Positions 1 to 13,239 of a DNA stretch of 64,000 bases are shown in pieces. A model generated the notes under the pieces. It worked only from the letters and a program-made list of their open reading frames with translations. It was not told where the DNA came from and ran no database searches. The DNA lies in NCBI GenBank assembly GCA_045627525.1, contig JAZQNW010000001.1, positions 120,270 to 184,269 of the forward strand. Direction: 5' to 3'. Made by a program: the position numbers and the translations under genes. The DNA comes from Bacilli bacterium. GTDB lineage: Bacteria > Bacillota_I > Bacilli_A > RF39 > UBA660. Every line of letters begins with the position of its first letter. Position 1 is the first letter of the stretch.

Positions 1-67
1 ATTATTGATGTTATAAAGACACGCTTTTTTTGATCTGATTTAATCTTATTAACCATAACTACAACTC

Positions 68-1063
68 CTATTCTTCTATATACTTTTTCAAAATATCTGT
101 AACCACTTCATATCCATCATTAGATAAATGTAATCCCTCAACAGTATAATCCAAATCTAAATTACCATCATCATCTAACAAATTGTTATAAACATCAATA
201 TATACTGTATCTTCTTCACTAGCTAATTTTTCTAATTTCTTATTGATTTTCATTATTTTTGAATTAGATCTTTTAGTATCAACAACACTCATATCAATTT
301 TATCATCATCAGTATTATTTATTGGTAAAATTGATTCTAAATAAATCTTACAATAAGGTCTATTCTCTTTTATATTATCTACTATCTTTTTTATATTCTC
401 AACAGTATCATCCATTTCTATATCTTTAACAAAATCATTAGTACCAATTAATATAAAAACTTTAGATGGATTATATTTATATACTCTATTATTCATATTA
501 TTAAGAATATCCTCAGTAGTATTGCCACACACCCCACTATTAACAACAGGGAAATCTTTATAATACTTTTCTAAATCATAAAACTCTGTAATTGAATCTC
601 CTAAAAATAAATAATTATTATCTACTTTAGTATCTTCTACAATTTTAGTTTTAGTGATAACTTTTCCACAGCTTTTATGATCAAAAGTTATGTAATGATA
701 AACAATAAAACTTCCCAATGAAATAACACATAAAACTAAAAATAAAATCCACAAATAAAACTTAATATATGGTCTTTCTTTTTTTGGCATTTCAACTTTT
801 TCATATTTCATTTTTTTTGTTTTTACCGGTTTATATTTATCCATAAAACTAGTATCTAAATTAATAGTAGCATCTAAATCAATTTCTTCACCTTTTTTAT
901 CTTTTACATCAGCTCTACTATATTTACTATCTACTTTAGTCTTTGAAATATATTTATTATTGTTAGAAACATATTTTTTTGAGCTATTATTTTTTTTAGT
1001 ATTTTTATTATTATTTTTTTGTACATTATTTTTATTAGTGCTTTTACTATTTTTATTAGCCAT
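68..1063 (-). CDS. Membrane-anchored SGNH/GDSL-family hydrolase (lipase/esterase-like). The N-terminus is Lys/Asn-rich low-complexity followed by one TM helix.
   Basis: GDS block (YLFLGDSITEF) and GTND block (VFILIGTNDF) fit the SGNH hydrolase fold. A hydrophobic stretch (LWILFLVLCVISLGSFIVY) follows the charged N-terminal tail. Confidence 0.55.
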   Translation of the reverse strand: MANKNSKSTNKNNVQKNNNKNTKKNNSSKKYVSNNNKYISKTKVDSKYSRADVKDKKGEEIDLDATINLDTSFMDKYKPVKTKKMKYEKVEMPKKERPYIKFYLWILFLVLCVISLGSFIVYHYITFDHKSCGKVITKTKIVEDTKVDNNYLFLGDSITEFYDLEKYYKDFPVVNSGVCGNTTEDILNNMNNRVYKYNPSKVFILIGTNDFVKDIEMDDTVENIKKIVDNIKENRPYCKIYLESILPINNTDDDKIDMSVVDTKRSNSKIMKINKKLEKLASEEDTVYIDVYNNLLDDDGNLDLDYTVEGLHLSNDGYEVVTDILKKYIEE

Positions 1064-1124
1064 AACTATACCTCTCTCACTATGAATAATTATATCATAT
1101 TAATCATAAAAAAAAGAGAAATTT

Positions 1125-2273
1125 TTATATTTCTCCTAAAATTAAATCTTTAAATCCACCAATGAACAAATCATAATAACTTAACGGTCTTACATTCTTA
1201 TCTATAATTAAATTTTTACTAGTAACTTCTTTTTCATTATCTAAAACTAATATTTTACCAACTACATTACCTTTTTTTATTGGCAATTTTAAATTATCTA
1301 TTTTTATTTCATACTTATAACTATGTCTAGAATCATCTATATTCTCAGCAACCACTAAATTTTCTTCTAAAATAATTTTAATTTTTTCTTGATTGGCTTT
1401 ATCCAATTTTATTTCTTTTATTATTTCTCCCTTCTTTTTCAATATATTTGTTCTCATATTATTAAAACCATAATCCATTAAATTCATAGCCTGAACATTT
1501 CTGACTTGACTGTTTTCCTCACCTAAAACTATTCCAATTAATCTTAAATTATTTTTTTTTGCTGTAACGGCAATACAATATCCAGCAGCATCGGTATGTC
1601 CCGTTTTTAATCCATCTGCCCCTTCATAAAATCTAACTAGTTTATTTGTGTTAACTAGCCAAAACTTATTATCAGTATTTTCTCGTAAATAGTCTTCATA
1701 AAGTGATGAAAAATCTAATATTTTAGGATGATTAATTACCAACTCTCTAGCAATAATAGCCATATCATAAGCTGTAGAATAATGATTATTTTCATCAAAA
1801 CCAGTACAATTTTTAAACTTTGTATTTTTAAGTCCCAATTCCTGGACTTTTTGATTCATTAATTTTACAAACTTTTCCTCACTACCACTAATATATTCAG
1901 CCATAGCTACAGTAGCATCATTACCACTAGCCATAGAAATACCTTTCATTAAATCTTCAACTGTTATTTTTTCACCTTGACTAATATATATTTGTGATCC
2001 TCCCATATCAGCAGCATTTTTACTAACTGTAACTACATCATTCCATTTTAGTTTACCCTCTTCAATTTTTTCTAAAATTATTATTTGAGCAACCATTTTA
2101 GTCATAGATGCAATAGCGACTCTCTTATTTTCGTTTTTCTTAAATAAAATTTTACCACTTTCAGCTTCAATTAAAATACCACTTACAGCATTACTTATAG
2201 GATCTTCCTTTGCTAATACGCCTATAGGTAAAATAAACAAAGAAATTATTAAAATCTTACATAAAAATTTCAT
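1125..2273 (-). CDS. D-alanyl-D-alanine carboxypeptidase (low-MW PBP, PBP5/DacA/DacF family) with a signal peptide
   Basis: SxxK active-site motif (ASMTKM), SGN motif (MASGNDA) and KTG motif (GLKTGHT) are present, with an N-terminal signal peptide. Confidence 0.85.
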   Translation of the reverse strand: MKFLCKILIISLFILPIGVLAKEDPISNAVSGILIEAESGKILFKKNENKRVAIASMTKMVAQIIILEKIEEGKLKWNDVVTVSKNAADMGGSQIYISQGEKITVEDLMKGISMASGNDATVAMAEYISGSEEKFVKLMNQKVQELGLKNTKFKNCTGFDENNHYSTAYDMAIIARELVINHPKILDFSSLYEDYLRENTDNKFWLVNTNKLVRFYEGADGLKTGHTDAAGYCIAVTAKKNNLRLIGIVLGEENSQVRNVQAMNLMDYGFNNMRTNILKKKGEIIKEIKLDKANQEKIKIILEENLVVAENIDDSRHSYKYEIKIDNLKLPIKKGNVVGKILVLDNEKEVTSKNLIIDKNVRPLSYYDLFIGGFKDLILGEI

Positions 2274-2360
2274 GTATACCTCCTACAATTTTTTATGTAA
2301 AATAATATAAAATTATACATAAATAATACATTTAATGCTATTATATAATTAGGTGATAGT

Positions 2361-3269
2361 ATGGCCGTTGTAAGAAAAAAAAGATTAAAATTAAAAAAGA
2401 AAAACTTTGCAATATTTCTTTTTTGTATTTTTCTAATAATAACAAGTCTCAATTGGGGAATAAAATCTATAACAAAAACCCTAAATAAAAGCAATCAAAA
2501 GAAAGAAACAATAGTAAAAAAAGAAAAACCAGTAAAGAAAAAAGTAGATTCTTTTGAAGAAGAATATAAAAAAGTTGGATATTATAAAGAAGAAAATCTA
2601 GAAAGATATAAAAAATATAAAACTAAATATCCTAATTTAACAACTGAACAAGTAATCACAAATATTAATATTGGATTAGATAATAAATATTATACTAATA
2701 CAAAAGAAGCTAAACACTTAAATAAAAGCTACATATTAGTAAATAAATATAACTATTTAGAAAAAAACTATGTACCAGATAATTTAGAAAAAATAAGTAC
2801 TCAATATGCATTAGCCGGTATGAGATTAATTAGCTATGCAAAAAATGCATTTGAAAATATGGCAAAATCTGCTCAAAAAGAAAACCTTTCAATTATAGCT
2901 ATGTCTAGTTATAGAAGCTATGAATATCAAACAAATTTATATAATAGCTATGTAAAAAGTGATGGCAAAGAAAAGGCAGACACCTATTCTGGAAGACCAG
3001 GATTTTCAGAACATCAAACGGGTTTAGCAGTTGATGTCTATAACGGAAAAGAAAATTACACAAACTTTGGTAATACAAAAGAATTTGAATGGATGAAAAA
3101 AAATGCCTATAAATATGGCTTTATTTTAAGATATCCAAAAGGTAAAGAATTAGAAACAGGATATGAATACGAAACTTGGCACTACAGATATGTTGGCAAA
3201 GAAATTGCTAAATATATTTATGAAAATAATATATCCTATGAAGAATATTATATTAAAAACTTCAAATAA
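2361..3269 (+). CDS. VanY-like D-Ala-D-Ala carboxypeptidase (peptidase M15B), membrane anchored
   Basis: Zn-binding motifs SEHQTGLAVD and ETWHYRYVG are present, with an N-terminal TM segment and the RBS aggtga upstream of the ATG. Confidence 0.8.
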   Translation: MAVVRKKRLKLKKKNFAIFLFCIFLIITSLNWGIKSITKTLNKSNQKKETIVKKEKPVKKKVDSFEEEYKKVGYYKEENLERYKKYKTKYPNLTTEQVITNINIGLDNKYYTNTKEAKHLNKSYILVNKYNYLEKNYVPDNLEKISTQYALAGMRLISYAKNAFENMAKSAQKENLSIIAMSSYRSYEYQTNLYNSYVKSDGKEKADTYSGRPGFSEHQTGLAVDVYNGKENYTNFGNTKEFEWMKKNAYKYGFILRYPKGKELETGYEYETWHYRYVGKEIAKYIYENNISYEEYYIKNFK

Positions 3270-3295
3270 AAAAATTGGAATAAATCCAATTTTTT

Positions 3296-3868
3296 TTAAT
3301 CATAATTTCTCTTAAAAAACTTATATAATCTACAAAAAGCTGTAAATACTAACCATATTACAAAAATTAAATTACTAATTTGAACTAATGATAAAACTAC
3401 ATTATTAGTATATAAGCTAACTAAATCAGTTAAATCAAGTTTATTAATAATAACTACACCTAAAAAACTAAAGAAGAAAAAATACAATAAAGAAAATGTT
3501 ACATAATTAATAACCTTTTTAAATACTGGTATATTTTTACTTACAATTGTAACAATCATTGAAACTATTACAAATAATAATATAAAAAAGTAAACTACAG
3601 GTGAAGGAAAATATATATAATTCAAAACTAACTTTACTAGACTATCAATACAATAGACAGCATATGTACCATTGGTAAGTATCAATACCAACAAAAAAAT
3701 TAAAAATAAAAACGAAATAGCCGAATTAACAACTTTATTTTTATACCTAATATTTAGTATTAAAAACAAACAAAAAAGAAGTGCTAACATGAATAATTCA
3801 ATCTCGAGAAAAGACGAAAAGGAATATTTCAATATTATAGTCAACTTTTCCCAAAGTGATAAAAACAT
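3296..3868 (-). CDS. Hypothetical polytopic membrane protein
   Basis: Several hydrophobic segments are present. I recognise no catalytic motif. Confidence 0.35.
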   Translation of the reverse strand: MFLSLWEKLTIILKYSFSSFLEIELFMLALLFCLFLILNIRYKNKVVNSAISFLFLIFLLVLILTNGTYAVYCIDSLVKLVLNYIYFPSPVVYFFILLFVIVSMIVTIVSKNIPVFKKVINYVTFSLLYFFFFSFLGVVIINKLDLTDLVSLYTNNVVLSLVQISNLIFVIWLVFTAFCRLYKFFKRNYD

Positions 3869-3885
3869 ATGAGCACCTCCAATTA

Positions 3886-4587
3886 CTAAATCATTTCAGA
3901 AATATAAACTGTCTGATGATAGTCATCATTTTTTGTACAAGTAATTAAAGTTAGCGTTGTTTTTTCGTAGTTTCTAGCTATTTTTACAGTCCCTACTTTA
4001 TCAACATTATATTTGTTTACTAATTTATATTGATACTTATTACCACCATAAGTAACAAAAATATCATCACCTATATTTAATTTATATAAATAAGCAAAAA
4101 ACGAAATATAAGCATCACCAGAATGTGCAATTAAAATTAAATTTCCATTTACAACATCTGGCATTGTAGACCCACTAACCAAAGTCACATTGTACTGAAT
4201 ATTATTGTACTTTGAATCAAGACCGTAGAACCCTCTTTTTAATCCTATTTTTGGTATTTCTAATACTCCTAAATATTTATCATAATTAATAGTATATGTT
4301 TGTGCCGGTTCAGAAGGTTGAGGAGATTCCACTACATCATTAGCAACAGGAACCTCTTCAATTACTTCTTCTTTTTCTTCGACCGGTTCTTTAGTAGCAT
4401 CAGAAATTAATATTTGCATATCTGAAAACACAGAATTACGTAACATCAATAAATGATTACCAGTCAAAACAAAAACACCCACAAATACAAGCAAAGAGCC
4501 AAATAATAATATATGACTCTTTTTAATTTTATTTTTTTTAATTAGTTGCTTTTGGTTTAGCATTTGCATAAATAATACCAACACCAC
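3886..4587 (-). CDS. Sortase (class B/pilus-type-like cysteine transpeptidase)
   Basis: An N-terminal TM anchor is followed by a catalytic His region (LILIAHSG) and the TLITC cysteine motif (TLTLITCT). It lies immediately downstream of a VPDTG-motif surface protein. Confidence 0.8.
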   Translation of the reverse strand: MVLVLFMQMLNQKQLIKKNKIKKSHILLFGSLLVFVGVFVLTGNHLLMLRNSVFSDMQILISDATKEPVEEKEEVIEEVPVANDVVESPQPSEPAQTYTINYDKYLGVLEIPKIGLKRGFYGLDSKYNNIQYNVTLVSGSTMPDVVNGNLILIAHSGDAYISFFAYLYKLNIGDDIFVTYGGNKYQYKLVNKYNVDKVGTVKIARNYEKTTLTLITCTKNDDYHQTVYISEMI

Positions 4588-5758
4588 TTAATAGAACTAT
4601 TAGACCAATAAAGTAAACTGTTTGAGCAGTTGACATACCTGTATCAGGCACTTTTAAAACAAACTCATTTGTATCTTCAACATTTGAAGTAGTAATAAAT
4701 ACATTTGTAACTGTTTGAGCTTTTATATCAGTAGTACCAGTAGTATCTTTATATGTTCCTTCAAATTTATATCCAGAATAAGTCTTTACTCCATTTGCAA
4801 CTGCTGTAAATTTAACAGCATTAGCTTTATCAGTAACAGAAGATACAGGAATTCTTATATAAAATTTAACATTTGGTTGAATATTGTTTAAATTTTCAAT
4901 TTTATTACCATTTTCATCAACAACATATGCACCCTTTGGGGCAGTAGTTAATTTAAGACTATATGAATCAAATGGATTATTAGCTGTAACACTAATTAAT
5001 GAAGTTTGATAGTATTTTTGATCTTCACTAATATTAACAGTATTATCAAAGTTAATTCCAAATTTAACTTTATCAATACCTTTAGCAGTAACATCAGATG
5101 AAACTTTCTTAGCAGCTGTCACTACAGGTTTAATATAATTTTCATATAAATTAACATTTTGTTTTATTGGTTCACCTTCACTATCAGCAATACCATTAAC
5201 TTTCATTACATCAGCTTCATTTACTTGCCCTAAATAAAGCCAAACAGCAATTTGAGAAAGCCATGTTTGAAGTTCTTCATCTGATTCAGTAAGACCATCA
5301 AAATTTTTATTTGGATAAATATTAGCCATTAAATACAATAAACCATAACCTTCAGGTCCAGTTATCTCAGTTGTACGAGACAATTCAACATTAGCAGCAT
5401 ATCCACGATCATGCTCTAAACAAAATATATGGTATGGATCTGTGCCACTAGCAGGATTTGTTATTACTGCTGAATAAGGATAAACTCTTAAAGGACTATT
5501 AGTAACTGGTGTACCATTTACTAGAGGAATTATAGTATCACCTGCTTCTTGAGTTCTAATCTTCATAGTATTTGAAGGAAATACCTTTGTCGGATTTACT
5601 TCCTCAGCAAAAGATGTTTGATCCAAACCAATAACAACTAATGACAATACGGCAACAAATACTAACGTTACTGAAGCCATTGCTATTTTTGAATTTGAAA
5701 TTTTTTGAAATAAATTTTGTTTTTTATTATTATGTTCTTCCATATAAATTTTTTCCAT
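4538..5758 (-). CDS. Cell-wall-anchored surface adhesin with a thioester domain (Cpa/TED-like), sorting signal VPDTG plus TM plus charged tail
   Basis: The C-terminus reads VPDTG, then a hydrophobic helix, then KPKATN. A signal peptide is present. The candidate thioester Cys is in HIFCLEHDRG and the Gln in the TQxA(I/V)W-like motif SQIAVW. The start is probably the internal ATG (MEKIY...) with RBS aggtagg. Confidence 0.7.
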   Translation of the reverse strand: MEKIYMEEHNNKKQNLFQKISNSKIAMASVTLVFVAVLSLVVIGLDQTSFAEEVNPTKVFPSNTMKIRTQEAGDTIIPLVNGTPVTNSPLRVYPYSAVITNPASGTDPYHIFCLEHDRGYAANVELSRTTEITGPEGYGLLYLMANIYPNKNFDGLTESDEELQTWLSQIAVWLYLGQVNEADVMKVNGIADSEGEPIKQNVNLYENYIKPVVTAAKKVSSDVTAKGIDKVKFGINFDNTVNISEDQKYYQTSLISVTANNPFDSYSLKLTTAPKGAYVVDENGNKIENLNNIQPNVKFYIRIPVSSVTDKANAVKFTAVANGVKTYSGYKFEGTYKDTTGTTDIKAQTVTNVFITTSNVEDTNEFVLKVPDTGMSTAQTVYFIGLIVLLSGVGIIYANAKPKATN

Positions 5759-5818
5759 ATCATAACCTACCTTTACAAAATCATTATAACACAAATTATT
5801 TATTTTAAAACACTTTTT

Positions 5819-7045
5819 TTATTTTATTGTATAAATATTTTCAAAATTCTTTACGCCAGTTTTTCCATCTTTATAAATATAAGCTAAAATATCACCTTTT
5901 TTAACTTTATCACCAACTAATTTTTCAAGATAAATTCCTACACTATAATCAATAGAATCTTCCTTATTAATTCTTCCTGCCCCAAGTGACACTGATAATT
6001 TTCCTAACTCTAAAGCATCTATATTTTTTACAATTCCATCCTTAGTAGCCTTTATTTTATGAACTTTATCACAAACTTTAATTTTTTGAATATCACCATG
6101 TTGACAATTAACAAATTCTAAAAATTTATTATATGCAGATAAATTATCAATACTCTCAATTACCTGCTTTCTAGCAGCAAGTGGCGTTATTTTTTTACCC
6201 ATACTAACCATCTCTGAAGCAAGTTCTATACACAAATTATATAAATTAGAATGTTTTTCTTCACCCTTTAATATACTAATTGCTTCAACAACTTCAATTG
6301 AATTACCTATTGCTCTACCCAAAGGAACATTCATATCACTAATTATAGTTCTAACCTCACGATTATAAAATTTACCAATCTTTATCATCAACTTGCTTAA
6401 TTTTTTAGCATCTTCTTCCGTTTGTAATAATGCACCTTTTCCAACCTTAATATCAATTAATATTTTATCTGCACCTGATGCTATTTTTTTACTCATTATA
6501 CTGGAAGCAATTAAAGGAATAGAAGAAACTGTACCAGTTACATCTCGTAATGCATAAATTGCTTTATCCATAGGAGCTAAATCAGCAGTTTGTCCAGTAA
6601 CAACCATTCCAATTTTCTTTACTTGTTTTAAAACTTCCTTATCTGTTAAATCTATTTTAAATCCAGGAATACTTTCCAATTTATCAATTGTACCACCTGT
6701 ATATCCTAATCCTCTTCCACTCATTTTAACAACAGGAACTCCTAAACTAGCAACAATAGGAGCAATAATTAAAGTAGTTTTATCACCAACACCACCAGTA
6801 GAATGTTTATCTACTTTAATTCCTGGAATATCTGAAAAATCTAATATATCACCACTATCTATAAAAATCTTAGTAAGAGCATATATTTCTTCATTAGTCA
6901 TTCCATTTATACATATTGCCATTAACAAAGACGACATCTGATAATCCGTTACATTACCATCTAAATATCCATTAAAGAAAAAATCAAGTTCCTTATAATC
7001 AAGTTCTTTTCCTAATCTTTTTTTATTAATAATATCAACTATCAT
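5819..7045 (-). CDS. pdp: Pyrimidine-nucleoside (thymidine) phosphorylase
   Basis: Glycosyl-transferase family-3 motifs are present (HSTGGVGDKTTL and the phosphate-binding region), and the length is typical for Pdp/DeoA. Confidence 0.9.
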   Translation of the reverse strand: MIVDIINKKRLGKELDYKELDFFFNGYLDGNVTDYQMSSLLMAICINGMTNEEIYALTKIFIDSGDILDFSDIPGIKVDKHSTGGVGDKTTLIIAPIVASLGVPVVKMSGRGLGYTGGTIDKLESIPGFKIDLTDKEVLKQVKKIGMVVTGQTADLAPMDKAIYALRDVTGTVSSIPLIASSIMSKKIASGADKILIDIKVGKGALLQTEEDAKKLSKLMIKIGKFYNREVRTIISDMNVPLGRAIGNSIEVVEAISILKGEEKHSNLYNLCIELASEMVSMGKKITPLAARKQVIESIDNLSAYNKFLEFVNCQHGDIQKIKVCDKVHKIKATKDGIVKNIDALELGKLSVSLGAGRINKEDSIDYSVGIYLEKLVGDKVKKGDILAYIYKDGKTGVKNFENIYTIK

Positions 7046-7452
7046 TCCAACACCTTCCTATATATATCTGAATCTCTCATAACAAATCCACAAGATTCAT
7101 ATAAATGATGAGCCACTACGCGTTGCCTTCCAGACGTAAGTTCTAAATACATTGCATTCTCCTTTAAAGCCTCTTCTTCCGCATACATCATCATCTTTTT
7201 GCCTATTCCTTTATTCTGATATTTTGGATCAACGCAAACATAACCAACATTAAAATAATATTTACCCCGAACCACATCTAAAATCTTAGTCATAACAAAG
7301 TATCCACAGATTTTATCATTATAAATTGCAACATATTCAGAGCAATTATCATCTGGAACACAATTGACTTTACCATATCCAAAAACTGATTCTAAAATAT
7401 TATTAACAGCAAAATAATCAGTTATGTCATATTTTCTAATCATAGCATCCAT
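7042..7452 (-). CDS. GNAT-family N-acetyltransferase
   Basis: The acetyl-CoA binding motif (QNKGIGKKMM) is present. The gene is translationally coupled to pdp through a 4-nt overlap. Confidence 0.7.
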   Translation of the reverse strand: MDAMIRKYDITDYFAVNNILESVFGYGKVNCVPDDNCSEYVAIYNDKICGYFVMTKILDVVRGKYYFNVGYVCVDPKYQNKGIGKKMMMYAEEEALKENAMYLELTSGRQRVVAHHLYESCGFVMRDSDIYRKVLE

Positions 7453-7485
7453 ATTATCACCTTACATAAAATATACCACAAGAAC

Positions 7486-7518
7486 AAAAAAAATACTAGC
7501 TAACTAGTATTTTTATTT
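7486..7518 (-). terminator. Rho-independent terminator after the 7528..8055 gene
   Basis: Hairpin atactag-ctaa-ctagtat followed by a T-run on the minus strand. Confidence 0.6.
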
Positions 7519-7527
7519 ACCATATTT

Positions 7528-8055
7528 TTATGATACTTTTCCATTATCATAAGCTTTATACTTTTTAATAGCAATAATAGCGGAAGCCATTTCTAAAATA
7601 TTACCTATAACTATAATATAAGCTCCAACATATACATTATATATGCCCCATAAGAATCCACTAATTAACATAACCCATCTAATATATTTTGGATTTTTAT
7701 AATAAGTAGATACAAATAACAATATGTTAATAACAAGAGGCAATAATGATAAAACACCATCATAAAAAATAACAGAAACAAAAATCAACAACATGATAAA
7801 TATAATAAGTACAATTACTGGTATTTTTTTCTTCTTATTTTCAATATTTATAAAAACAAAATCTTTTACTTCTTCTAATACTTCTATTGACACTCCAGAC
7901 CAAGCACCCTTAATCACATATACAATTAAGTAACATATTGAAGCAAATATTTGAGTTATCAAAATATCTTTTTTCTTTTTAAACTGTACACTCATAACAT
8001 ATAAAAATATAGATGCTATAGATACAACATAATAAAGTATTGTTATAAAATTCAT
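7528..8055 (-). CDS. Hypothetical integral membrane protein (about 5 TM)
   Basis: Hydrophobicity pattern only. Confidence 0.4.
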   Translation of the reverse strand: MNFITILYYVVSIASIFLYVMSVQFKKKKDILITQIFASICYLIVYVIKGAWSGVSIEVLEEVKDFVFINIENKKKKIPVIVLIIFIMLLIFVSVIFYDGVLSLLPLVINILLFVSTYYKNPKYIRWVMLISGFLWGIYNVYVGAYIIVIGNILEMASAIIAIKKYKAYDNGKVS

Positions 8056-8273
8056 AATAATTCACCCAAATCTATTCTTTAAAATACTAAAATAATTATA
8101 CCACATTCCTAAACTAATTGCATAAATTTTCTTTTTTACCCGGTTCTTTTAATCCCAAATATTTATAAATTCCTGTTCTAGCATATATATCACCAAAATC
8201 ATTATAACATAAAAAAATCTATAAATACTTTGTACTTGTAACATCACAATTATATATACAGTTAATTCAACAA

Positions 8274-8302
8274 TAAAAGCAGATTACTCATCTGCTTTCT
8301 TG
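8274..8302 (-). terminator. Rho-independent terminator closing the XRE-to-SSB-like operon and the ssb remnant
   Basis: Hairpin aaagcagat-tactc-atctgcttt. It spans the stop codon of the ssb C-terminal remnant and is followed by T-rich sequence on the minus strand. Confidence 0.6.
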
Positions 8303-8409
8303 CTACTTAAAAATGTTATTTTTTCAGCAATTATATCAATTGAATATTTCTTTTCACCATTAATTTCATGACAATTTGATTGAACTCTTCCTTTAACTCC
8401 AACTAATGG
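8284..8409 (-). pseudogene. ssb: C-terminal remnant of a disrupted ssbB-like single-strand DNA-binding protein gene
   Basis: The minus-strand translation ...PLVGVKGRVQSNCHEINGEKKYSIDIIAEKITFLSSKKADE* aligns to the beta4-beta5 and C-terminal part of canonical SSB (GVDGRLQTRNYE...VTEV.AESVQFL). It has no start codon of its own. It lies in a different frame from the upstream 99-aa ORF. Confidence 0.65.
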
Positions 8410-8431
8410 TTTTTGATAATACAAAAATACA

Positions 8432-8731
8432 CTAAATTTTAAATAAAATATTGTTGTCTAGTTTAGAAACATAAGAGTCAACTATAATTTTAAATCCCCA
8501 TTTAGTATCAATGTGACCACTAATTGCGATACTTTCGTTTTTACATTTTTTTAAATGTTCATAGTCAGGGTTTTCAAATATTACTGGAATATTATATTTA
8601 ATGTTTTGATCATTATCAGATTCTACATTAATAATCATTTTTACTGCTTTATTATTATTCGACTTTATTTTTATCATATTTGATTTTACTCTTCCAATTA
8701 ATAAAACCTCATTATTCAAAGTATTTTTCAT
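8432..8731 (-). CDS. Minimal SSB-like OB-fold protein (divergent, no acidic C-terminal tail), last gene of the inserted operon
   Basis: The N-terminus (NEVLLIGRVKSNMIKIK...AVKMIINVE) resembles the SSB beta1-beta3 region, and the later segment (ISGHIDTKWGFKIIVDSYVSKL) resembles beta4-beta5. A strong RBS (ggaggaa) precedes the ATG. It starts 24 nt after the zinc-ribbon nuclease gene. Confidence 0.5.
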   Translation of the reverse strand: MKNTLNNEVLLIGRVKSNMIKIKSNNNKAVKMIINVESDNDQNIKYNIPVIFENPDYEHLKKCKNESIAISGHIDTKWGFKIIVDSYVSKLDNNILFKI

Positions 8732-8754
8732 TTCCTCCTCACCCCCTATTATAA

Positions 8755-9640
8755 TTATTTACAATATGGACAATTAGTACCTCGTACTCTATATCTTATT
8801 TCAGCTTCCCATTCATGTCCTTTATCACATTTCCACCATACTTTTTTATGTGATCCATTGGTAAACATTTGAGGAATCATTGTTTTATTTTTTTCATAAT
8901 TCCATTCTTTACATAAACTATAATTTGTTGTCATTAAATCGTTGTAACCAACTAATACTTTTTTGTTATTACAATATGGGCAATTAGTCCCACTTATTCT
9001 ATTATAAATAGTTGCTTCCCATTCATGTCCTTTACCACATTTCCACCATACTTTTTTTCCTGAACCACTTTTTAAATCAGTTGGTTTAAGGTTATTATTC
9101 TTCTCATAATTCCATTCTTTCAGTAACAAAGGATTTGTCGTTGCTAAATCATTAATACCTTTTATAGCAGATCTTCCTGAACAATATGGACAACTATTTC
9201 CGTGTGTTCTAGAGTTTATTGTTGCTTCCCATTCATGTCCTTTATTACATTTCCACCATACTTTAAAATTAGACGATTTAGTATAATTTTCTGGATTTTG
9301 ACTATTTTTTTCATAATTCCATTCTTCAATTAACTTAGCATTAGTTGTTCTCAAATCATTAAAACCAAATAGTACTTTTTTACCAGCGCAGTATGGACAA
9401 CCACTTCCTCTTGTCCTTGAAGATACAGTAGCTTCCCATTCATGCTTTTTATCACATTTCCACCAAACCTTAATATCAGATCCAGAATAAATACTCTCAG
9501 GCTTCAAATCTTTATTCTTTTCGTAATTCCATTCTTCTTTTAAATATGAATATTCAACTGCTACAGATTTTTTTTCTAATGCTAACATATAACTTGCTCT
9601 TATATTACTTTCCTCATTGTCTAAATCAAATTTTTTAGTT
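8755..9640. repeat. Intragenic tandem DNA repeats, about 207-210 bp period and 4-5 copies, encoding the zinc-ribbon modules
   Basis: The motif gcttcccattcatgtcctttatcacatttccaccatac recurs near 8804, 9014, 9224 and 9431. This matches the roughly 69-aa protein repeat (EWNYEKN...KVWWKC.KGHEWEA...CPYC). Confidence 0.7.
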
Positions 9641-10416
9641 AAAGGTATATAAGTTTCTAATTCATTAATTACTCTATAAATTTCGTCATTGTTTGGATGT
9701 CGTTTGATAGTTATATAAATATCAGCAGTATCTTTTTCCCCAAGATAGTTTTCTTTAACCCTTATTAGTTTTATTTCATTTTTTTTACAAATATCATATT
9801 TTTTCTTTTCTTTTATATATGAGTCAGTTCCATCATGCCATAGTTCTCCATCATATTCAATTCCTATTTGAAGAGATGGTATATAAATGTCAATTTCCAT
9901 TCCATTGTTAAATATATCATTATATCTATTTACTGTATCGGAATAATTCTTTCTTAAATAATAAAAAAGTACTTGTTCTGGATACGATGTTTGAGTTCTT
10001 TTGCTACAATTAGGACATCCAGTACTTAATGATTTATTATTTCTATTATGCGGAGTTGCTTGCCACTCATATCCGCAAACAGAACATTTCCACCAATATT
10101 TTTTTCCACTTCTTGGGGAAACTAAATCAGAAGATATTTCATTCTTTAGTTCATCAAATTCATTAGCCAATAAAGGATATAATGTTTTTAAATCATTAAC
10201 ACCTTTTATCGCTAATCGCCCAGAACAATAAGGACATTTATGGTTTATTCTTCTATTCACTTTTTGTTTCCAACTATGACCTTTTGTACATAACCACCAT
10301 ACTTCTTTTTCTGAACCAGTAGTCAATTTACTTAAATCGATATTATTATTTTTATTATAATCCCATTGGGACATTAATTCTTTATTGTCAGTAACAAACA
10401 TACTCAAGTTAATCAC
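8755..10416 (-). CDS. Multi-zinc-ribbon protein with a central Vsr/DUF559-like PD-(D/E)xK endonuclease core. Two zinc-ribbon modules lie N-terminal of the core and about five lie C-terminal.
   Basis: About seven repeats of W-x-C-x(2,3)-H-x-W...C-P-x-C (for example KVWWKCDKKHEWEATVSSRTRGSGCPYCAGK) form treble-clef-like zinc ribbons. The central segment MEIDIYIPSLQIGIEYDGELWH...NEIKLIRV matches the Vsr/DUF559 signature (D...IEvDG..H...hhRh). The start is non-ATG (GTG or TTG) or the internal ATG. Confidence 0.6.
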   Translation of the reverse strand: MINLSMFVTDNKELMSQWDYNKNNNIDLSKLTTGSEKEVWWLCTKGHSWKQKVNRRINHKCPYCSGRLAIKGVNDLKTLYPLLANEFDELKNEISSDLVSPRSGKKYWWKCSVCGYEWQATPHNRNNKSLSTGCPNCSKRTQTSYPEQVLFYYLRKNYSDTVNRYNDIFNNGMEIDIYIPSLQIGIEYDGELWHDGTDSYIKEKKKYDICKKNEIKLIRVKENYLGEKDTADIYITIKRHPNNDEIYRVINELETYIPLTKKFDLDNEESNIRASYMLALEKKSVAVEYSYLKEEWNYEKNKDLKPESIYSGSDIKVWWKCDKKHEWEATVSSRTRGSGCPYCAGKKVLFGFNDLRTTNAKLIEEWNYEKNSQNPENYTKSSNFKVWWKCNKGHEWEATINSRTHGNSCPYCSGRSAIKGINDLATTNPLLLKEWNYEKNNNLKPTDLKSGSGKKVWWKCGKGHEWEATIYNRISGTNCPYCNNKKVLVGYNDLMTTNYSLCKEWNYEKNKTMIPQMFTNGSHKKVWWKCDKGHEWEAEIRYRVRGTNCPYCK

Positions 10417-10425
10417 TTCTCCTTT

Positions 10426-11097
10426 TTATAAATCATTACATACTTTTCCAACTTCATATAAGATATCACTTTCATATATTTTATTAAAATTTGAAAATTT
10501 AATTCTACTTAGTTTTCTAAAAAATGGATGATCTATTTGATTTAAATATGCATAATTAGATATATCATTTATTATACAATCAAATAGTTCGTTTACTTCC
10601 TTTATTAGCGAAATCAACTCATATGAATCTATATAGTATTCGTACGTAACGTTCTCATGTTCATTTGTTTCTTTATTAAAAATAGCATCATTAACTTTAA
10701 GACCGAACTTAAACCAGCTATCATTTCCAGAATAATGCGACATTATCTTTGCATCGTGAAGTTTATGTTCATATTTATTTCTAATCTTTTTAATTTTTAT
10801 TAAAACTTCTTTATTATTTATAATAATTTGCTCATATTTTTGTTTTAAATATGGAAGTGATTCATCAAATTCTAATAACCCATCTTTTTTAATTAATTTT
10901 ACTTTTTTTTCATTTACAGAACAATATGGAATTATTCTCGGAATATCCTGAATCAAGTCTAATATTACTTTTGAACCAACATTAAAATCATCTATTGCAT
11001 CCGAACCACATAATTTTATTAATCTTTTATTTGATGTATACAAAACATCTATATATCCATAAATCGCATTAAAGATACTCTCATCCATTTTTTCCAC
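10426..11097 (-). CDS. Hypothetical 223-aa protein with an R-x4-H motif (RNKYEH), possibly a HEPN-like RNase or abortive-infection protein
   Basis: No strong family match by eye. The only motif is R-x4-H in KIRNKYEHKLHD. It starts at GTG or ATG with an RBS (agaggt or aggtgg). It is tightly packed between the XRE gene and the zinc-ribbon gene. Confidence 0.35.
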   Translation of the reverse strand: MEKMDESIFNAIYGYIDVLYTSNKRLIKLCGSDAIDDFNVGSKVILDLIQDIPRIIPYCSVNEKKVKLIKKDGLLEFDESLPYLKQKYEQIIINNKEVLIKIKKIRNKYEHKLHDAKIMSHYSGNDSWFKFGLKVNDAIFNKETNEHENVTYEYYIDSYELISLIKEVNELFDCIINDISNYAYLNQIDHPFFRKLSRIKFSNFNKIYESDILYEVGKVCNDL

Positions 11098-11133
11098 CTC
11101 TACCTCTTAATTATATCATAAAGATGAATATCC

Positions 11134-11418
11134 TTACTCTTCTTGCATAAAGCTATATGTTCTAATTTTTTTAGTATTTCTTTTTAAAATAATTTTGTCA
11201 TTTAAATGATTATCATAAAAAATATCATCTGGATACATTTTAAAAATAGAAGAAATTTTAACTGCCATAATATAATCTAATTTTCTTTTTCCATTTTCTA
11301 TTTGACAATAATATGAAATACTGATTTTCAACATCTTAGCCATATCACTACAGGTATAATTATTAACTTTTCTAAATTGCTTTAAAATTTCATACATATA
11401 CATCACCATAAAAAACAT
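11134..11418 (-). CDS. XRE-family helix-turn-helix transcriptional regulator, first gene of the inserted operon
   Basis: Classic HTH_XRE signature (YTCSDMAKMLKISISYYCQIENGKRKLD). The true start is probably the internal Met (MYEILKQF...). Confidence 0.75.
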   Translation of the reverse strand: MFFMVMYMYEILKQFRKVNNYTCSDMAKMLKISISYYCQIENGKRKLDYIMAVKISSIFKMYPDDIFYDNHLNDKIILKRNTKKIRTYSFMQEE

Positions 11419-11540
11419 TACCGCAAATAATTGAAAAAATCCGCTATTTTTTTACAAATAGGAAAATAATTTAAATTTGAAAGGAGGCTTGATATTTAAG
11501 AAAGTAAGTAGTTATAGGGAAAATTCATTGCATATCCGGA

Positions 11541-11562
11541 AACTATATCCCAACTATATCCC
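11541..11562. repeat. Perfect 11-bp tandem duplication (AACTATATCCC x2) at the right junction of the insertion
   Basis: Positions 11541-11551 and 11552-11562 are identical. The first copy creates the premature TAG (cta at 11543-11545) ending the ssb N-fragment. Confidence 0.8.
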
Positions 11563-11764
11563 CCTTAGAACAATAATTAGATGTATTTTCTGCTACATTT
11601 TCAAAAGCTATACAATCTATAAAATCTGTATCATAAGTACCATCCATATTTTTAAAACTCCTTGGTATAGCCAAAGGAATAGTTGCGACTTTTTTACCTC
11701 CTTCTGATTTATTAATTTTAATATCTCGCGTTAATCTTCCAACCAAAACTATTTGATTTAACAT
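11543..11764 (-). pseudogene. ssb: N-terminal fragment (73 codons) of an ssbB-like SSB gene, truncated at the insertion junction
   Basis: MLNQIVLVGRLTRDIKINKSEGGKKVATIPLAIPRSFKNMDGTYDTDFIDCIAFENVAENTSNYCSKGDIVGI* aligns to the first roughly 70 residues of bacterial SSB ([21 protein letters not shown]...ADFINCV.W...AENVANFLKKGSL.GV). It has a strong RBS (gggaggtg) and stops abruptly at TAG. Confidence 0.7.
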
Positions 11765-11854
11765 ATTTCACCTCCCTTCACAAAGATGATATACAATAAT
11801 ATAAAACTCTACAAATGATCATTTTTAGTATTTGATCATAAATAATGAATAAAA

Positions 11855-11890
11855 AAAAAGAAATTTCCTAAACGAAAATTTCTTTTTTAA
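11855..11890 (-). terminator. Terminator of the suf operon (after sufB)
   Basis: Hairpin agaaatttc-ctaaacg-aaaatttct followed by T-run on minus strand. Confidence 0.55.
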
Positions 11891-11925
11891 TATTATATAT
11901 ATTAATAAAATACAACTTTAATACC

Positions 11926-13239
11926 TCATAAATTTCTTTTTATTAATTGATTTAACTCAACTGCATATTCCATAGGTAATTCTTCTCTAAATCTTTCTAG
12001 AAAGCCTAATACTATTAATTCCATTGCTCTTTCTCTAGAAATGCCTCTACTCATTAAATAGAATAAATTTTCTTCACTTATTTTTGAAACAGTAGCTTCA
12101 TGCTCAATACTACTGCTCATATTAAAGCATGAATTAACAGGTATTGTATCACTTTTAGATTTTTCATCTAAAATTAAAGTATCACATTTAACATTGCTGT
12201 TACTATTTAATGCTCCACTATTAATTAATACTTTGCCACGATAAGTAGCATTACCACCATCTCTAGAAATACTCTTAGAAATTATATTGCTCTTCGTATT
12301 TTTACCTAAATGAATCATCCTAGCACCACTATCTTGTTCTTGACCATTGTTAGCAACAGAAATAGTAATACAAGTACCATTAGAATTATCCCCCTTTAAT
12401 ACACAACAAGGATATTTCATAGTTACCTTACTACCTATGTTACCATCAATCCACTCCATAGTACCATTTTCATCTACTAAAGCTCTTTTTGTAACTAAAT
12501 TGTAAACATTAGTAGCCCAATTTTGAATAGTAGAATAACGACATTTACTATTCTTCCCAACATAAATTTCTACAACAGCTGCATGTAAAGATGACTCACT
12601 ATAAGTAGGAGCAGTACATCCCTCAATATAATGCAAATCACTATTATCATCAACTATAATTAATGTTCTTTCAAATTGCCCCATATTTTTACTATTGATT
12701 CTGAAATAACTTTGTAATGGTCTATCTAAAACAGTGTTAGGTGGTACATAAATAAAGCTACCACCACTAAATACAGCACCATTTAATGCAGCAAATTTAT
12801 TTTCATTATTATTAACAATTTTGCCAAAATATTTTTTTACTAAATCAGGGTATTCCTTCATAGCAACTTCAATTGAAGTAAAAATAACTTTTTTCTTTTC
12901 TAATTCTTCTATCATTTTATGATAAATTACTTCACTCTCATACTGAACACCCATACCACCAAGATGTTTTTCACTTTCTAAAACACCCAGATCATTTAAT
13001 TCATCCTTTACAGGTTTTAAAACATTATTCCAATCACTTTGAATTTTTTCATCTGCCTCAGTATTTTTATAATATATAACATCATCAAAATTAAGATTTA
13101 TTTCAGGACCAAATTTAGGCATTTCTAGTTTCAGAAATTTATTAAAACTATCAACACGAAAATCCCTAACCCAAGAATCTTCATTCTTTTTGTTAGAGAT
13201 TTTTTTTACTTTATCTAAATTAATCCCTTTTATTTCCAC
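11926..13239 (-). CDS. sufB: Fe-S cluster assembly protein SufB
   Basis: The conserved C-terminal SufB/SufD motif (LFYLMSRGISRERAMELIVLGFL) and beta-helix core are present. It lies in sufC-D-S-U-B order. Confidence 0.9.
   Translation of the reverse strand: MEIKGINLDKVKKISNKKNEDSWVRDFRVDSFNKFLKLEMPKFGPEINLNFDDVIYYKNTEADEKIQSDWNNVLKPVKDELNDLGVLESEKHLGGMGVQYESEVIYHKMIEELEKKKVIFTSIEVAMKEYPDLVKKYFGKIVNNNENKFAALNGAVFSGGSFIYVPPNTVLDRPLQSYFRINSKNMGQFERTLIIVDDNSDLHYIEGCTAPTYSESSLHAAVVEIYVGKNSKCRYSTIQNWATNVYNLVTKRALVDENGTMEWIDGNIGSKVTMKYPCCVLKGDNSNGTCITISVANNGQEQDSGARMIHLGKNTKSNIISKSISRDGGNATYRGKVLINSGALNSNSNVKCDTLILDEKSKSDTIPVNSCFNMSSSIEHEATVSKISEENLFYLMSRGISRERAMELIVLGFLERFREELPMEYAVELNQLIKRNL

Follow-up and report, generated by a model that had tools for sequence, protein, structure and literature searches.

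We found that two open reading frames in the window, the 64-kb stretch of DNA analysed here, are parts of one SsbB-type SSB gene that has been split by an insertion (Table 1). In the explanation that we favour, with a probability of roughly one half, the one-off insertion of a compact, integrase-less, horizontally acquired four-gene defence or addiction islet at codon 72 made this ssb paralogue a pseudogene.

One SsbB-type gene in two pieces

The preliminary description had read the two pieces as one gene, and alignment to the SSB family model and to B. subtilis SsbB bore this out, as the pieces score as halves of a single domain. Joined, they encode a protein of 109 aa, not the ~113 aa first given, which covers Pfam SSB positions 1-104 of 104 (80.9 bits). 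This restored protein aligned without a break over residues 1-106 with B. subtilis SsbB (PDB 3vdy; E 5.6e-24), its best solved-structure match, and it has no acidic C-terminal tip. In the N-terminal fragment, codons 1-72 (11550..11764) are ssb sequence and the final codon and stop (...G-I-stop) derive from the insert. The C-terminal remnant is still open, within a frame spanning 8284..8424 on the minus strand, and has diverged slightly beyond the family baseline (62.6% vs 70.5%). It had been described as start-less; an in-frame TTG is present at 8424, although we saw no Shine-Dalgarno-like sequence upstream of it.

Uninterrupted copies were sought, and intact empty-site alleles were found in syntenic relatives, which are MAGs with the gene at the same chromosomal position (L001-L004). 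Intact ssb homologues are 109-113 aa long and 72-82% identical, mostly at 97-100% coverage. Gene order is sufS-sufU-sufB-ssb...thymidine phosphorylase...sortase in L001-L003, with sufC and sufD additionally present in L001, and sufB-ssb-acetyltransferase-thymidine phosphorylase-sortase-VanY in L004. A search for a same-species empty allele found none. Blastn against the relatives placed the break points at window positions 11550 and 8403, and the N-terminal fragment aligned to L001/L004 as far as 11550/11543. The interrupted paralogue adjoins the suf operon, downstream of it, in the genome of an uncultured, gut-type, low-GC Bacilli/'Tenericutes'-like bacterium.

The CCAACTA heptamer reported earlier is present, exactly, at both junctions. 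The probability that two sites at this fixed distance share a 7-mer is about 3e-4 in this window, or about 2e-3 with 3 nt of register slack. A target-site duplication is one reading of the repeat; the 7-bp crossover core of a trans-acting recombinase fits equally well. The left junction is also spanned by an exact 11-bp tandem repeat, absent from the preliminary description, in which one unit is ssb codons G-D-I-V and the other holds the insert's first 9 nt. This is the sole tandem repeat of at least 8 nt with a period of 10-13 in window positions 7500-12500 (chance about 3e-4), and a simple target duplication does not predict it.

Table 1. Features of the split ssb gene and its insert (window coordinates)
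Feature	Position	Strand	Details
Intergenic region sufB/ssb	11765..11925	-	sufB terminator-like hairpin (-10.3 kcal/mol, z -2.3); ssb ribosome-binding site GGGAGGTGAAAT before ATG
N-terminal ssbB fragment ORF	11543..11764	-	73 aa; Pfam SSB positions 1-74 of 104, 58.4 bits, E 8e-16
11-bp exact tandem repeat across left junction	11541..11562	.	AACTATATCCC x2 (+ strand), GGGATATAGTT x2 (gene strand)
7-bp direct repeat, left copy	11550..11556	.	CCAACTA (+ strand), TAGTTGG (gene strand)
Insert	8406..11549	-	3,144 bp; absent from syntenic relatives; blastn break points and junction alignment
Insert left end, non-coding	11419..11549	-	presumed promoter/operator region of XRE operon
XRE-family helix-turn-helix regulator	11134..11418	-	94-aa ORF; Pfam HTH_19 E 1e-9, HTH_3 E 4e-7
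223-aa protein, probably HEPN-like	10426..11097	-	unannotated family of about 208 aa
553-aa nuclease	8755..10416	-	two DUF4379 fingers, Vsr/DUF559-like PD-(D/E)xK core (about residues 140-225), four more DUF4379 fingers
SSB/PriB-like OB-fold protein	8432..8731	-	99 aa; AF2 pLDDT 84; Foldseek
7-bp direct repeat, right copy	8399..8405	.	CCAACTA; just 26 nt past stop codon of 99-aa gene
C-terminal ssbB remnant	8284..8405	-	codons 71-109 and stop; Pfam SSB positions 71-104, 15.6 bits; blastn to L001/L004
Intrinsic terminator of ssb	8262..8305	-	overlaps ssb stop codon; -16.3 kcal/mol, z -4.1; then UUUUAUUGUUG

Genes of the insert

The insert consists of an upstream non-coding region and four tightly spaced, co-oriented genes, as described earlier, with strong ribosome-binding sites and almost nothing more. 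Its AT skew, -0.11 to -0.24, departs from that of the flanks (about +0.03 to -0.09), while GC is similar. In agreement with the preliminary description, we detected neither an integrase nor a transposase nor terminal inverted repeats in the insert; nor was intron RNA seen. On the plus strand, an outward-facing AAAGGAGG in the non-coding left end precedes a TTG ORF (11477..11707), and a consensus promoter scan of this end gave an uninformative signal in AT-rich DNA. Read-through of the operon into the ssb terminator, proposed earlier, is plausible, that hairpin being the sole strong one among folds 3' of the cassette.

The regulator matched PHROG 3 'transcriptional repressor' (E 1e-13) and PADLOC HTH_VI (E 1e-10). 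The family of the 223-aa protein has an invariant RNKYEH motif (R106-N-K-Y-E-H111, an Rx4H) and a helical bundle with a three-stranded beta insert. Its weak matches to HEPN_Apea, LA2681, AbiU2 and HepS are all sub-threshold, and Foldseek against the PDB returned nothing significant; motif and matches together suggest that the family is probably HEPN-like. The 553-aa protein matched DUF4379 six times (E 1e-115) as well as PHROG 559, 681 and 3339, annotated 'HNH/homing endonuclease'. No Pfam nuclease model reached threshold on it. Its designation as Vsr-like is supported by the Vsr/DUF559-type invariant residues of the central domain (E174, D176, E187-Y-D-G190, H194 and K206), kept in at least 99% of 97 homologues. 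For the 99-aa protein we found no sequence-family match, and 13 homologous cluster representatives apart from itself; Foldseek with its AF2 model gave PriB, SSB and SsbB as top matches (E 3e-5 to 5e-4, TM 0.6-0.7), so that by predicted structure it appears SSB-like, as had been suggested.

In an exact-sequence look-up, three cassette proteins proved to be singletons in 90%-identity clustering, and the other two, in the exact ORF form given, were not found; nuclease and 223-aa entries that are 100% identical, with shorter N-termini, were recovered on the same 291-kb contig. This one NCBI contig, from one assembly, is alone in carrying the insertion and holds the sole copy of the cassette known; the same cassette was sought in other genomes and not found. 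None of the three non-regulatory cassette proteins matched a PADLOC model.

Relatives of the cassette genes in other genomes

Of about 45 loci with a relative of the 223-aa gene or of the nuclease, none had an adjoining ssb. These loci lie at the secA 3' end, beside R-M, TIR or AbiH genes, or in integrase or serine-recombinase islands, and the HEPN-like gene is often found at the secA 3' end in other genomes and never in ssb. With a single copy of the cassette known and no related locus beside ssb, the earlier proposal that the cassette targets an ssb gene was not supported.

Three other genomes have the HEPN-like gene next to the nuclease gene. The nuclease lies upstream of the HEPN-like gene in L014 and L018, where it shows weak DUF559/MTES_1575 matches and NUMOD1; in L054, a 70%-identical relative, the DUF4379-like ORF on the downstream side is truncated, and in L051 an HNH nuclease occupies the same slot. 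Neighbours of the HEPN-like family include DpnII R-M, TIR and AbiH genes plus integrases, and among 142 neighbouring proteins, pooled for a Pfam scan, there were 6 phage integrases, 4 ResIII and two each of GmrSD_N, type I S subunits, Schlafen helicases, RhuM and Fic. In other loci the pair occurs without the XRE and OB-fold genes, and the four genes may therefore not form one system.

Explanations for the insertion

We infer that the cassette may serve in defence or abortive infection or as a selfish nuclease. Under the favoured reading, the islet would have entered by one recombination event, with a crossover or staggered cut within TAGTTGG and the recombining enzyme acting in trans; either a circular form integrated via the 7-bp core, or a staggered break was followed by fill-in. 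Transcription would start both at the islet's own XRE-controlled promoter and, by read-through, at that of ssb, with transcripts ending at the old ssb terminator. The functional core would be the recurring pair of HEPN-like protein and zinc-finger Vsr-like DNase, most likely a module for abortive infection, defence or addiction. In this scheme invading or damaged DNA would be the substrate of the DNase, and RNA that of the HEPN-like protein; the resulting ssDNA would be bound, as sensor or protector, by the SSB/PriB-like protein, with repression of the operon left to the XRE protein. By analogy, such a combination appears mechanistically plausible from the triggers of two HEPN abortive-infection tRNases, DNA breakdown products for ApeA (bioRxiv 10.64898/2026.01.26.701840) and SSB-bound ssDNA for DARNA (bioRxiv 10.64898/2026.02.22.705581). 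The choice of ssbB as insertion site would be incidental, and the cell could bear its loss, since growth does not require SsbB-type proteins.

An unlikely alternative is a cassette driven by its nuclease, in which the 553-aa enzyme is a free-standing homing endonuclease that cleaves intact ssb in its conserved GDIVGVKGR-coding stretch (putative target GGGGATATAGTTGGAGTTAAAGG), the whole cassette being copied or captured into the break and its SSB-like gene compensating for lost ssb function. CapR/DUF4379/DUF723-related domains joined to an EDxHD/Vsr-like domain have been proposed as a large unrecognised homing endonuclease outgroup (PMC12350094), so the insertion may have been self-driven. This would fit the PHROG annotations and the 175 phage records with nuclease relatives, which are called '(putative) homing endonuclease', the NUMOD1/I-HmuI-like modules on relatives, and the sharing of one slot next to the HEPN-like gene by Vsr-like and HNH families, a pattern characteristic of free-standing homing endonuclease genes. 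There is precedent for Vsr-like homing endonucleases between halves of broken DNA-metabolism genes (PMC2677866); here the insertion falls in the most conserved part of ssb and an SSB-fold gene ends the cassette. Yet the insertion was seen once, with no nuclease or cassette relative in or beside ssb; the closest full-length nuclease homologue is plain cargo inside a serine-recombinase island; and three other genes, including a regulator, would be unusual for a homing endonuclease unit. Moreover, homologous repair leaves no target duplication, whereas a 7-bp repeat is present, and I-Bth0305I, the one characterised family member, leaves 2-nt rather than 7-nt overhangs (PMC3239194).

The recurrence of the HEPN-like gene at secA raises a quite unlikely route, mis-integration in trans by a tyrosine integrase of a non-autonomous secA-3'-end islet carrying this gene into a secondary ssb site (putatively GATATAGTT) resembling the islets' tandem 11-bp sites (GATAnnGTT). 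Coding sequence of the secA tail is duplicated downstream of the islet in L018, L020, L024 and L051 (22-35 bp, 88-95% identity; in L014, only an 11-nt exact match), and a tandem TTAGATA(nn)TT x2 with a period of 11-12 lies 0-10 nt past the HEPN-like stop codon and again after secA, an arrangement that integrase arm-type sites would show. Some of these loci, though not L014 and L018, contain integrase ORFs, the junction unit GATAtaGTT resembles GATAcaGTT (L014) and GATAcgGTT (L051), and a 7-bp overlap is typical of tyrosine recombinases. However, the tandem in the window sits at the crossover itself and not 80-150 bp off in an arm, the right end of the insert holds only one degenerate unit, no inverted core-type sites around TAGTTGG could be read from the sequence, and the motif similarity is short in AT-rich DNA; nor did the recombinases of related loci, used as queries, find an integrase in the 64-kb window. 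That same lack of a recombinase in element or window weighs against a regulated intervening element, which we regard as very improbable, whose precise excision at the 7-bp repeat, for example under competence, would restore ssbB as with skin in sigK or the Listeria comK prophage. Excision at the exact repeat would restore the reading frame without a scar, both fragments are still open and ssbB is a competence gene in B. subtilis, but divergence of the C-terminal remnant somewhat exceeds the family baseline and no second example was found. It is likewise very improbable that the arrangement is an assembly artefact (a chimeric MAG contig) or a functional gene in pieces, with fragments made separately and reassembled, for example by split inteins. 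One contig alone carries these proteins, and fractured genes with a Vsr-like endonuclease between the halves are known (PMC2677866); a chimeric join, however, would not give a clean 7-bp duplication with halves in register and flanks matching both sides, and the N-terminal fragment ends two codons past the junction, the C-terminal one lacks a ribosome-binding site, and there are no intein blocks (neither an N-intein of about 100 aa nor a C-intein of about 35 aa).

The one-off islet insertion that we favour has partial counterparts among known systems. The interrupted gene resembles SsbB of B. subtilis and S. aureus, the short competence-type paralogue, in its single OB domain, similar length and missing acidic tip, but identity to B. 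subtilis SsbB is moderate and the gene is broken here. Like HEPN abortive-infection RNases (ApeA, HepS, DARNA; HEPN/MNT toxins), the 223-aa family combines an R-N-x-x-x-H motif and a helical bundle with defence-island surroundings; it differs in its beta insert and in being paired with a DNase rather than standing alone, and PADLOC gave no ApeA match for the 223-aa protein. ApeA is also much larger. The nuclease shares with EDxHD/Vsr-like homing endonucleases (I-Bth0305I, PMC3239194; the CapR/DUF4379-like outgroup, PMC12350094) repeated ~60-aa zinc-finger modules, a Vsr-like catalytic domain with conserved acidic and His residues, and NUMOD modules in relatives, although its nuclease domain is central between fingers and not C-terminal, the cassette has no intron or intein, and homing is putative here. 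Fractured genes produced by free-standing homing endonucleases (Dassa et al., 2009, PMC2677866; phage Aeh1 nrdA split by mobE) likewise have a Vsr-related endonuclease gene with its own control elements between the halves of a conserved DNA-metabolism gene. In contrast to these, ssbB has no split-intein halves, its downstream half lacks translation signals, and the insert holds four genes instead of one, lies in a bacterial chromosome instead of a phage and is flanked by a 7-bp repeat. In integrase-less islets and cis-mobilisable elements with att repeats, in skin (sigK) and in the comK prophage, an accessory segment also interrupts a gene with short direct repeats at its bounds, and duplicated secA 3' ends border the islands that house relatives of the cargo described here; the present repeat is only 7 bp, a recombinase gene is absent, excision is hypothetical, and the target, ssb, differs from that of the islands in which the cargo's relatives reside.

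The split ssb gene and its intact relatives

We compared the two ssb pieces flanking the 3,144-bp, four-gene insert with the Pfam SSB model (PF00436) and with B. subtilis SsbB. The N fragment, whose 73 codons end in ...NYCSKGDIVGI* and are preceded by the strong ribosome-binding site stated in the preliminary description, aligned to positions 1-74 of 104 (58.4 bits), and the C remnant, translating as ...KPLVGVKGRVQSNCHEINGEKKYSIDIIAEKITFLSSKKADE*, aligned to positions 71-104 (15.6 bits). Joined through their common heptamer, the halves gave a 109-aa protein matching positions 1-104 (80.9 bits). Its best relative of solved structure is SsbB (3vdy; E 5.6e-24), to which it aligned with no interruption. 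The pieces are thus parts of one SSB gene with a continuous frame across the join, as had been proposed, with a restored length of 109 aa rather than the ~113 aa first estimated. The restored protein ends in ...FLSSKKADE and lacks an acidic interaction tip; its homologues of 109-113 aa have K/E-rich tails without DDD-(I/L)PF. With its full OB domain, short length and missing acidic tip, the restored gene has the predicted profile of an SsbB-type SSB. No second ssb was found elsewhere within the 64-kb window.

Homologues of the restored protein number in the thousands; the best of them (109-113 aa; 72-82% identity, mostly at 97-100% coverage) come from 'Bacilli bacterium' and 'Tenericutes bacterium' MAGs. 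At three related loci (L001-L003), sufS-sufU-sufB is followed by an intact ssb and then by thymidine phosphorylase and sortase genes, with sufC and sufD also present in L001. A fourth locus, L004, has the order sufB-ssb-acetyltransferase-thymidine phosphorylase-404 aa-sortase-190 aa-VanY, which is the order of the window minus the insert and one extra membrane-protein gene. In blastn comparisons, the window segments on either side of the insert aligned to adjoining positions of the intact loci with an overlap of a few bases. Because of this intact context in relatives, and of the blastn and junction alignments, we regard the insertion as real, lineage-specific and 3,144 bp long plus one repeat copy. 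In the search of related genomes suggested in the preliminary description, empty sites were recovered at these four loci, and the same cassette was not found in any other ssb. The site showed no repeated occupation in different lineages, the window holding the only occupied ssb although empty alleles exist. An exact search of JGI metagenomes with the restored empty-site 28-mer gave no match, so no same-species empty allele was found.

The C remnant is still open yet slightly more diverged (62.6% against a family baseline of 70.5%), and the N part is near its baseline (84% against 87%), so the insertion event is neither brand new nor ancient.

Two further features of this neighborhood were observed. 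The extra gene of the window codes for a multi-pass membrane protein of 175 aa and is located between ssb and the gene for the acetyltransferase; its absence from the otherwise collinear L004 makes this a second indel adjoining ssb. A gene with a prepilin-type N-methylation domain (PF07963) lies just upstream of the suf-ssb block in L001, a possible tie to competence or pseudopilus functions.

Coordinates of features in the window and in related loci
Locus	Feature	Position (strand)
Window	Insert	8406..11549 (-)
Window	ssb N fragment	11543..11764 (-)
Window	ssb C remnant, open frame	8284..8424 (-)
Window	XRE regulator gene	11134..11418
Window	223-aa protein gene	10426..11097
Window	553-aa nuclease gene	8755..10416
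Window	99-aa OB-fold protein gene	8432..8731
Window	CCAACTA copies	8399-8405; 11550-11556
Window	11-bp tandem repeat	11541-11562
Window	Antisense TTG ORF	11477-11707 (+)
Window	175-aa membrane protein gene	7528-8055 (-)
Window	Segments adjoining in intact loci (blastn)	13200..11550; 8403..8262
L001	PF07963 gene	1-390
L005	HEPN-like gene and DpnII-type R-M	45-3481
L009	HEPN-like gene and its neighbors	5603-7619
L051	327-aa HNH nuclease gene	1165-2148
L055	Island with nuclease homologue	1928-8304
L018	secA tail and downstream copy	6602-6652; 8784-8870
L020	secA tail and downstream copy	5624-5655; 8840-8871
L024	secA tail and downstream copy	7766-7800; 10122-10156
L051	secA tail and downstream copy	981-1002; 2888-2909
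L014	TTAGATA(nn)TT x2	6516/8628/8872
L017	TTAGATA(nn)TT x2	7688
L018	TTAGATA(nn)TT x2	6709/8632/8917
L024	TTAGATA(nn)TT x2	7890/9975
L025	TTAGATA(nn)TT x2	4444
L051	TTAGATA(nn)TT x2	2769

Junctions and tests of mobility

An exact copy of CCAACTA lies at each junction, where the preliminary description had placed it, as in the target-site duplications of insertion sequences and transposons; a 7-mer common to two sites at a fixed distance has a chance of ~3e-4 in the window. The junctions align as GGGGATATAGTTGG|GATATAGTTTCC... and ...AAACCATTAGTTGG|AGTTAAAGG against the intact GGnGATATnGTnGGnGTAAAGG. The restored, uninterrupted ssb junction reads GGGGATATAGTTGGAGTTAAAGG, and AAACCATTAGTTGGGATATAGTTTCC is the sequence expected at the circle junction of an excised insert. 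In addition, an exact 11-bp tandem repeat (GGGATATAGTT x2 on the gene strand) spans the left junction, the edge next to the N fragment, one unit belonging to ssb and the other forming the insert's first bases. In terms of integrase att-type features, the junctions thus offer a 7-bp identical core, with no inverted sites around it, and the 11-bp tandem on the left. The left junction can also be parsed as a crossover of 5 bp in TAGTT and a subsequent tandem duplication of 11 bp, the latter shifting the N fragment out of frame into G-I-stop. An outward-facing AAAGGAGG and, behind it, a TTG ORF start inside the insert's left end and run antisense into the N fragment. They may be the remaining, truncated 5' part of a gene that formerly ran divergently from the XRE gene; the insert would then be a fragment of something larger.

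As already reported, the insert carries no integrase, transposase or terminal inverted repeats: its products comprise an HTH protein, a HEPN-like protein, a zinc-finger nuclease and an OB-fold protein, with no tyrosine or serine recombinase among them, and no inverted repeat pairs its two ends. Phmmer searches with seven recombinases from related loci gave no match in the window's ORFs, and the insert ends showed only chance-level short matches elsewhere in the window or the fetched loci. Only 26 nt separate the last stop from the repeat, where an attC needs at least 57 nt, and the insert has its own upstream non-coding region and regulator, so we rejected an integron cassette. Likewise rejected were a group I/II intron or other RNA element (nothing in Rfam at E up to 1), a phage origin of the DNA (no blastn match to 50,697 phage records) and a split-intein reading (no intein blocks, and an N fragment that stops two codons after the junction). 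The HEPN-like and OB-fold families were absent from viral contigs. PADLOC-DB 2.0 returned only HTH models, matching the XRE protein, and zero families for the other three products at E up to 1. By these searches the cassette does not qualify as an IS, integron cassette, intron, integrase island or any PADLOC system.

The four products and the loci of their relatives

All four genes of the insert are co-oriented, have strong ribosome-binding sites and are separated from one another by no more than 36 nt; upstream of the first lies a non-coding stretch of 131 nt. Its GC content equals that of the flanks, and its AT skew differs. Of the hairpins folded downstream of the cassette, only the old ssb terminator is strong (-16.3 kcal/mol, z -4.1), which makes the proposed read-through into the ssb remnant and its terminator plausible; our terminator scan missed this hairpin, and separate folding revealed it. 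A consensus promoter scan gave counts equal to shuffled expectation and is uninformative in such AT-rich DNA. By exact-sequence look-up, the nuclease, the OB-fold protein and the ssb N fragment are singleton clusters at 90% identity from one 291-kb NCBI contig; exact contig look-ups with the nuclease returned no record. The exact XRE and 223-aa ORFs were not found by this look-up, and a 220-aa entry from the same contig is 100% identical to the 223-aa protein.

The gene identities in the preliminary description held, with XRE supported by an HTH profile, the Vsr-like nuclease by conserved residues and the SSB-like protein by Foldseek. The 553-aa nuclease has six DUF4379 treble-clef zinc fingers (E 1e-115) flanking a central domain whose E174, D176, E187-Y-D-G190, H194 and K206, conserved at ≥99% in 97 homologues, form a Vsr/DUF559 pattern. 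Its relatives show weak DUF559/MTES_1575 matches and NUMOD1/I-HmuI modules; PHROGs 559, 681 and 3339 and 175 phage records name them (homing) endonucleases, and this architecture has been only proposed to represent homing endonucleases (PMC12350094). The 99-aa protein has no sequence family, and its AF2 model (pLDDT 84) matches SSB/PriB OB domains (Foldseek E 3e-5 to 5e-4). The 223-aa protein, also without a family assignment, belongs to a small family of ~208 aa (47 members besides its own entry) in which R106 and H111 are invariant in 46 sequences, within RNKYEHKxH; RNKYEH fits the Rx4H (Rx4-6H) signature of HEPN RNases. AF2 models it (pLDDT 88.6) as a bundle of helices with a three-stranded insert; Foldseek returned nothing significant for it. 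Member-by-member Pfam searches gave sub-threshold matches to HEPN_Apea (10/46), LA2681, AbiU2, DUF4145 and pEK499 HEPN, and a PDB profile search reached HepS at E 0.33. On these features the odds lean modestly toward a HEPN-like protein, and we refer to it as such.

We found the HEPN-like gene in the genomes of 34 species and in several metagenomic contigs; at none of these loci was there an ssb in the vicinity. The idea that the cassette targets an ssb gene is therefore not borne out, the window being a single occurrence. The HEPN-like genes of L014 and L018 are immediately preceded by a gene for a DUF4379/Vsr-like nuclease with 36-38% identity to that of the window, and in L054, the closest relative (70% identity), the HEPN-like gene is immediately followed by a truncated DUF4379-like ORF, the order also seen in the window. 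In L051 the upstream slot holds an HNH nuclease (327 aa, with a Lys/Glu-rich repeat region), located between secA and the HEPN-like gene and overlapping the latter's start, in the same position as the nucleases of L014 and L018. At other loci, the HEPN-like gene immediately precedes a complete DpnII-type R-M system (DpnII with two methylases; L005, one contig), sits between genes for a 124-aa unknown and a 291-aa TIR-domain protein (L009), or is found among AbiH, integrases and serine recombinases; the DpnII R-M and TIR genes could represent alternative partner effectors. Among 142 neighboring proteins scanned together, integrases, SecA, ResIII, methylases, GmrSD_N, Schlafen helicases, RhuM and Fic predominated; Imp-YgjV membrane proteins occurred three times among the family's neighbors. 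This adjacency and these island neighbors indicate that the HEPN-like/nuclease pair is a recurring module of mobile or defence islands, to which the XRE and OB-fold genes are local additions.

Among full-length homologues of the nuclease, the closest (47% identity, 837 aa, with more DUF4379 repeats) is cargo of a small island that lies between tex and smpB and also encodes a large serine recombinase of 543 aa (L055). It has no HEPN-like or OB-fold partner there, and a 241-aa unknown protein follows it in the HEPN-like gene's place. The OB-fold family is tiny, with members in unrelated short contigs and no consistent gene context, as its three metagenomic loci were too short or unrelated.

In nine loci, secA lies immediately upstream. 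The coding sequence of its zinc-binding tail (CGSGKKYKxCCG, within NDPCPCGSGKKYKxCCGK*) recurs downstream of small HEPN-like-carrying islets in L018, L020, L024 and L051, and L014 has only an 11-nt exact match there. This duplication implies that the islets are located within the 3' end of secA and bring a substitute for its tail; the downstream copy and terminator in L018 resemble the native tail of L024. A tandem TTAGATA(nn)TT x2 with a period of 11-12 lies 0-10 nt past the HEPN-like stop codon in L014, L018, L025 and L051, and again after secA in L014, L018, L024 and L017, against a background of ~1 such 11-12-period tandem of any sequence per 4.3 kb. Judged from sequence, this is apparently the layout of attL/attR with arm-type sites of a tyrosine-integrase island, and the motif itself looks like integrase arm-type sites or an operator; no integrase was found in the L014 and L018 islets. 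The repeat at the left junction of the window is the only comparable tandem within 7500-12500, and its core GATAtaGTT is similar to GATAcaGTT (L014) and GATAcgGTT (L051).

Origin of the insert and comparison with known systems

Together, these data support one insertion event, in which an accessory islet lacking an integrase turned a dispensable SsbB-type gene into a pseudogene. The inserting enzyme would have acted in trans, with the crossover or stagger within TAGTTGG, the gene-strand form of the repeat. The islet is most likely a defence, abortive-infection or addiction module, in which a HEPN-like RNase would be paired with the zinc-finger Vsr-like DNase, the XRE repressor would control the islet and the SSB-like protein would handle or sense ssDNA. 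Such a combination is plausible given that the HEPN tRNase ApeA is switched on by deoxydinucleotides from DNA degradation (bioRxiv 10.64898/2026.01.26.701840) and DARNA by SSB-presented ssDNA (bioRxiv 10.64898/2026.02.22.705581), which proves nothing for the insert itself.

From the sequences at the junctions we rejected an assembly artefact or a functional split gene. Homing into ssb driven by the nuclease, whose relatives bear homing-endonuclease names, loses weight because the cassette occurs only once, a 7-bp repeat flanks it and all relatives lie in contexts other than ssb. Further rival readings are mis-integration by a secA-island integrase at a look-alike site in ssb, on which the GATA-type tandem bears, and a regulated excisable element. 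A bolder scheme, which we consider very improbable, is a novel type of integrase-free mobile element. In this scheme the cassette's multi-zinc-finger Vsr-like nuclease would itself cut a conserved DNA-metabolism gene in a staggered fashion, and the element would enter there with a 7-bp duplication. Its cargo would be a replacement SSB-fold protein and a HEPN toxin serving addiction or defence, and its recognition sites the tandem 11-bp GATAnnGTT units at islet boundaries. If the nuclease is indeed the insertion engine, or the 11-bp units are recombination sites, small islets would have a new way to move; otherwise, the single insertion favored here is a well-documented but ordinary case in which a dispensable ssbB became a pseudogene.

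The locus provides a clean, datable case of an accessory cassette lacking a mobility gene inside a conserved gene, with an ancestral state recoverable from relatives. It also brings to light an unannotated ~208-aa family, probably HEPN-like, which is a candidate new defence or addiction module since it recurs beside homing-type nucleases and inside defence or mobile islands. The closest known arrangement is the 'fractured gene' (PMC2677866), in which a DNA-metabolism gene is broken by a free-standing Vsr-like endonuclease; unlike fractured genes, the locus lacks the defining split inteins and its insert is a four-gene operon. The cassette is a variant of defence or selfish-nuclease islets combined with gene disruption by an islet, distinguished by its unannotated HEPN-like family and an unexplained junction structure.
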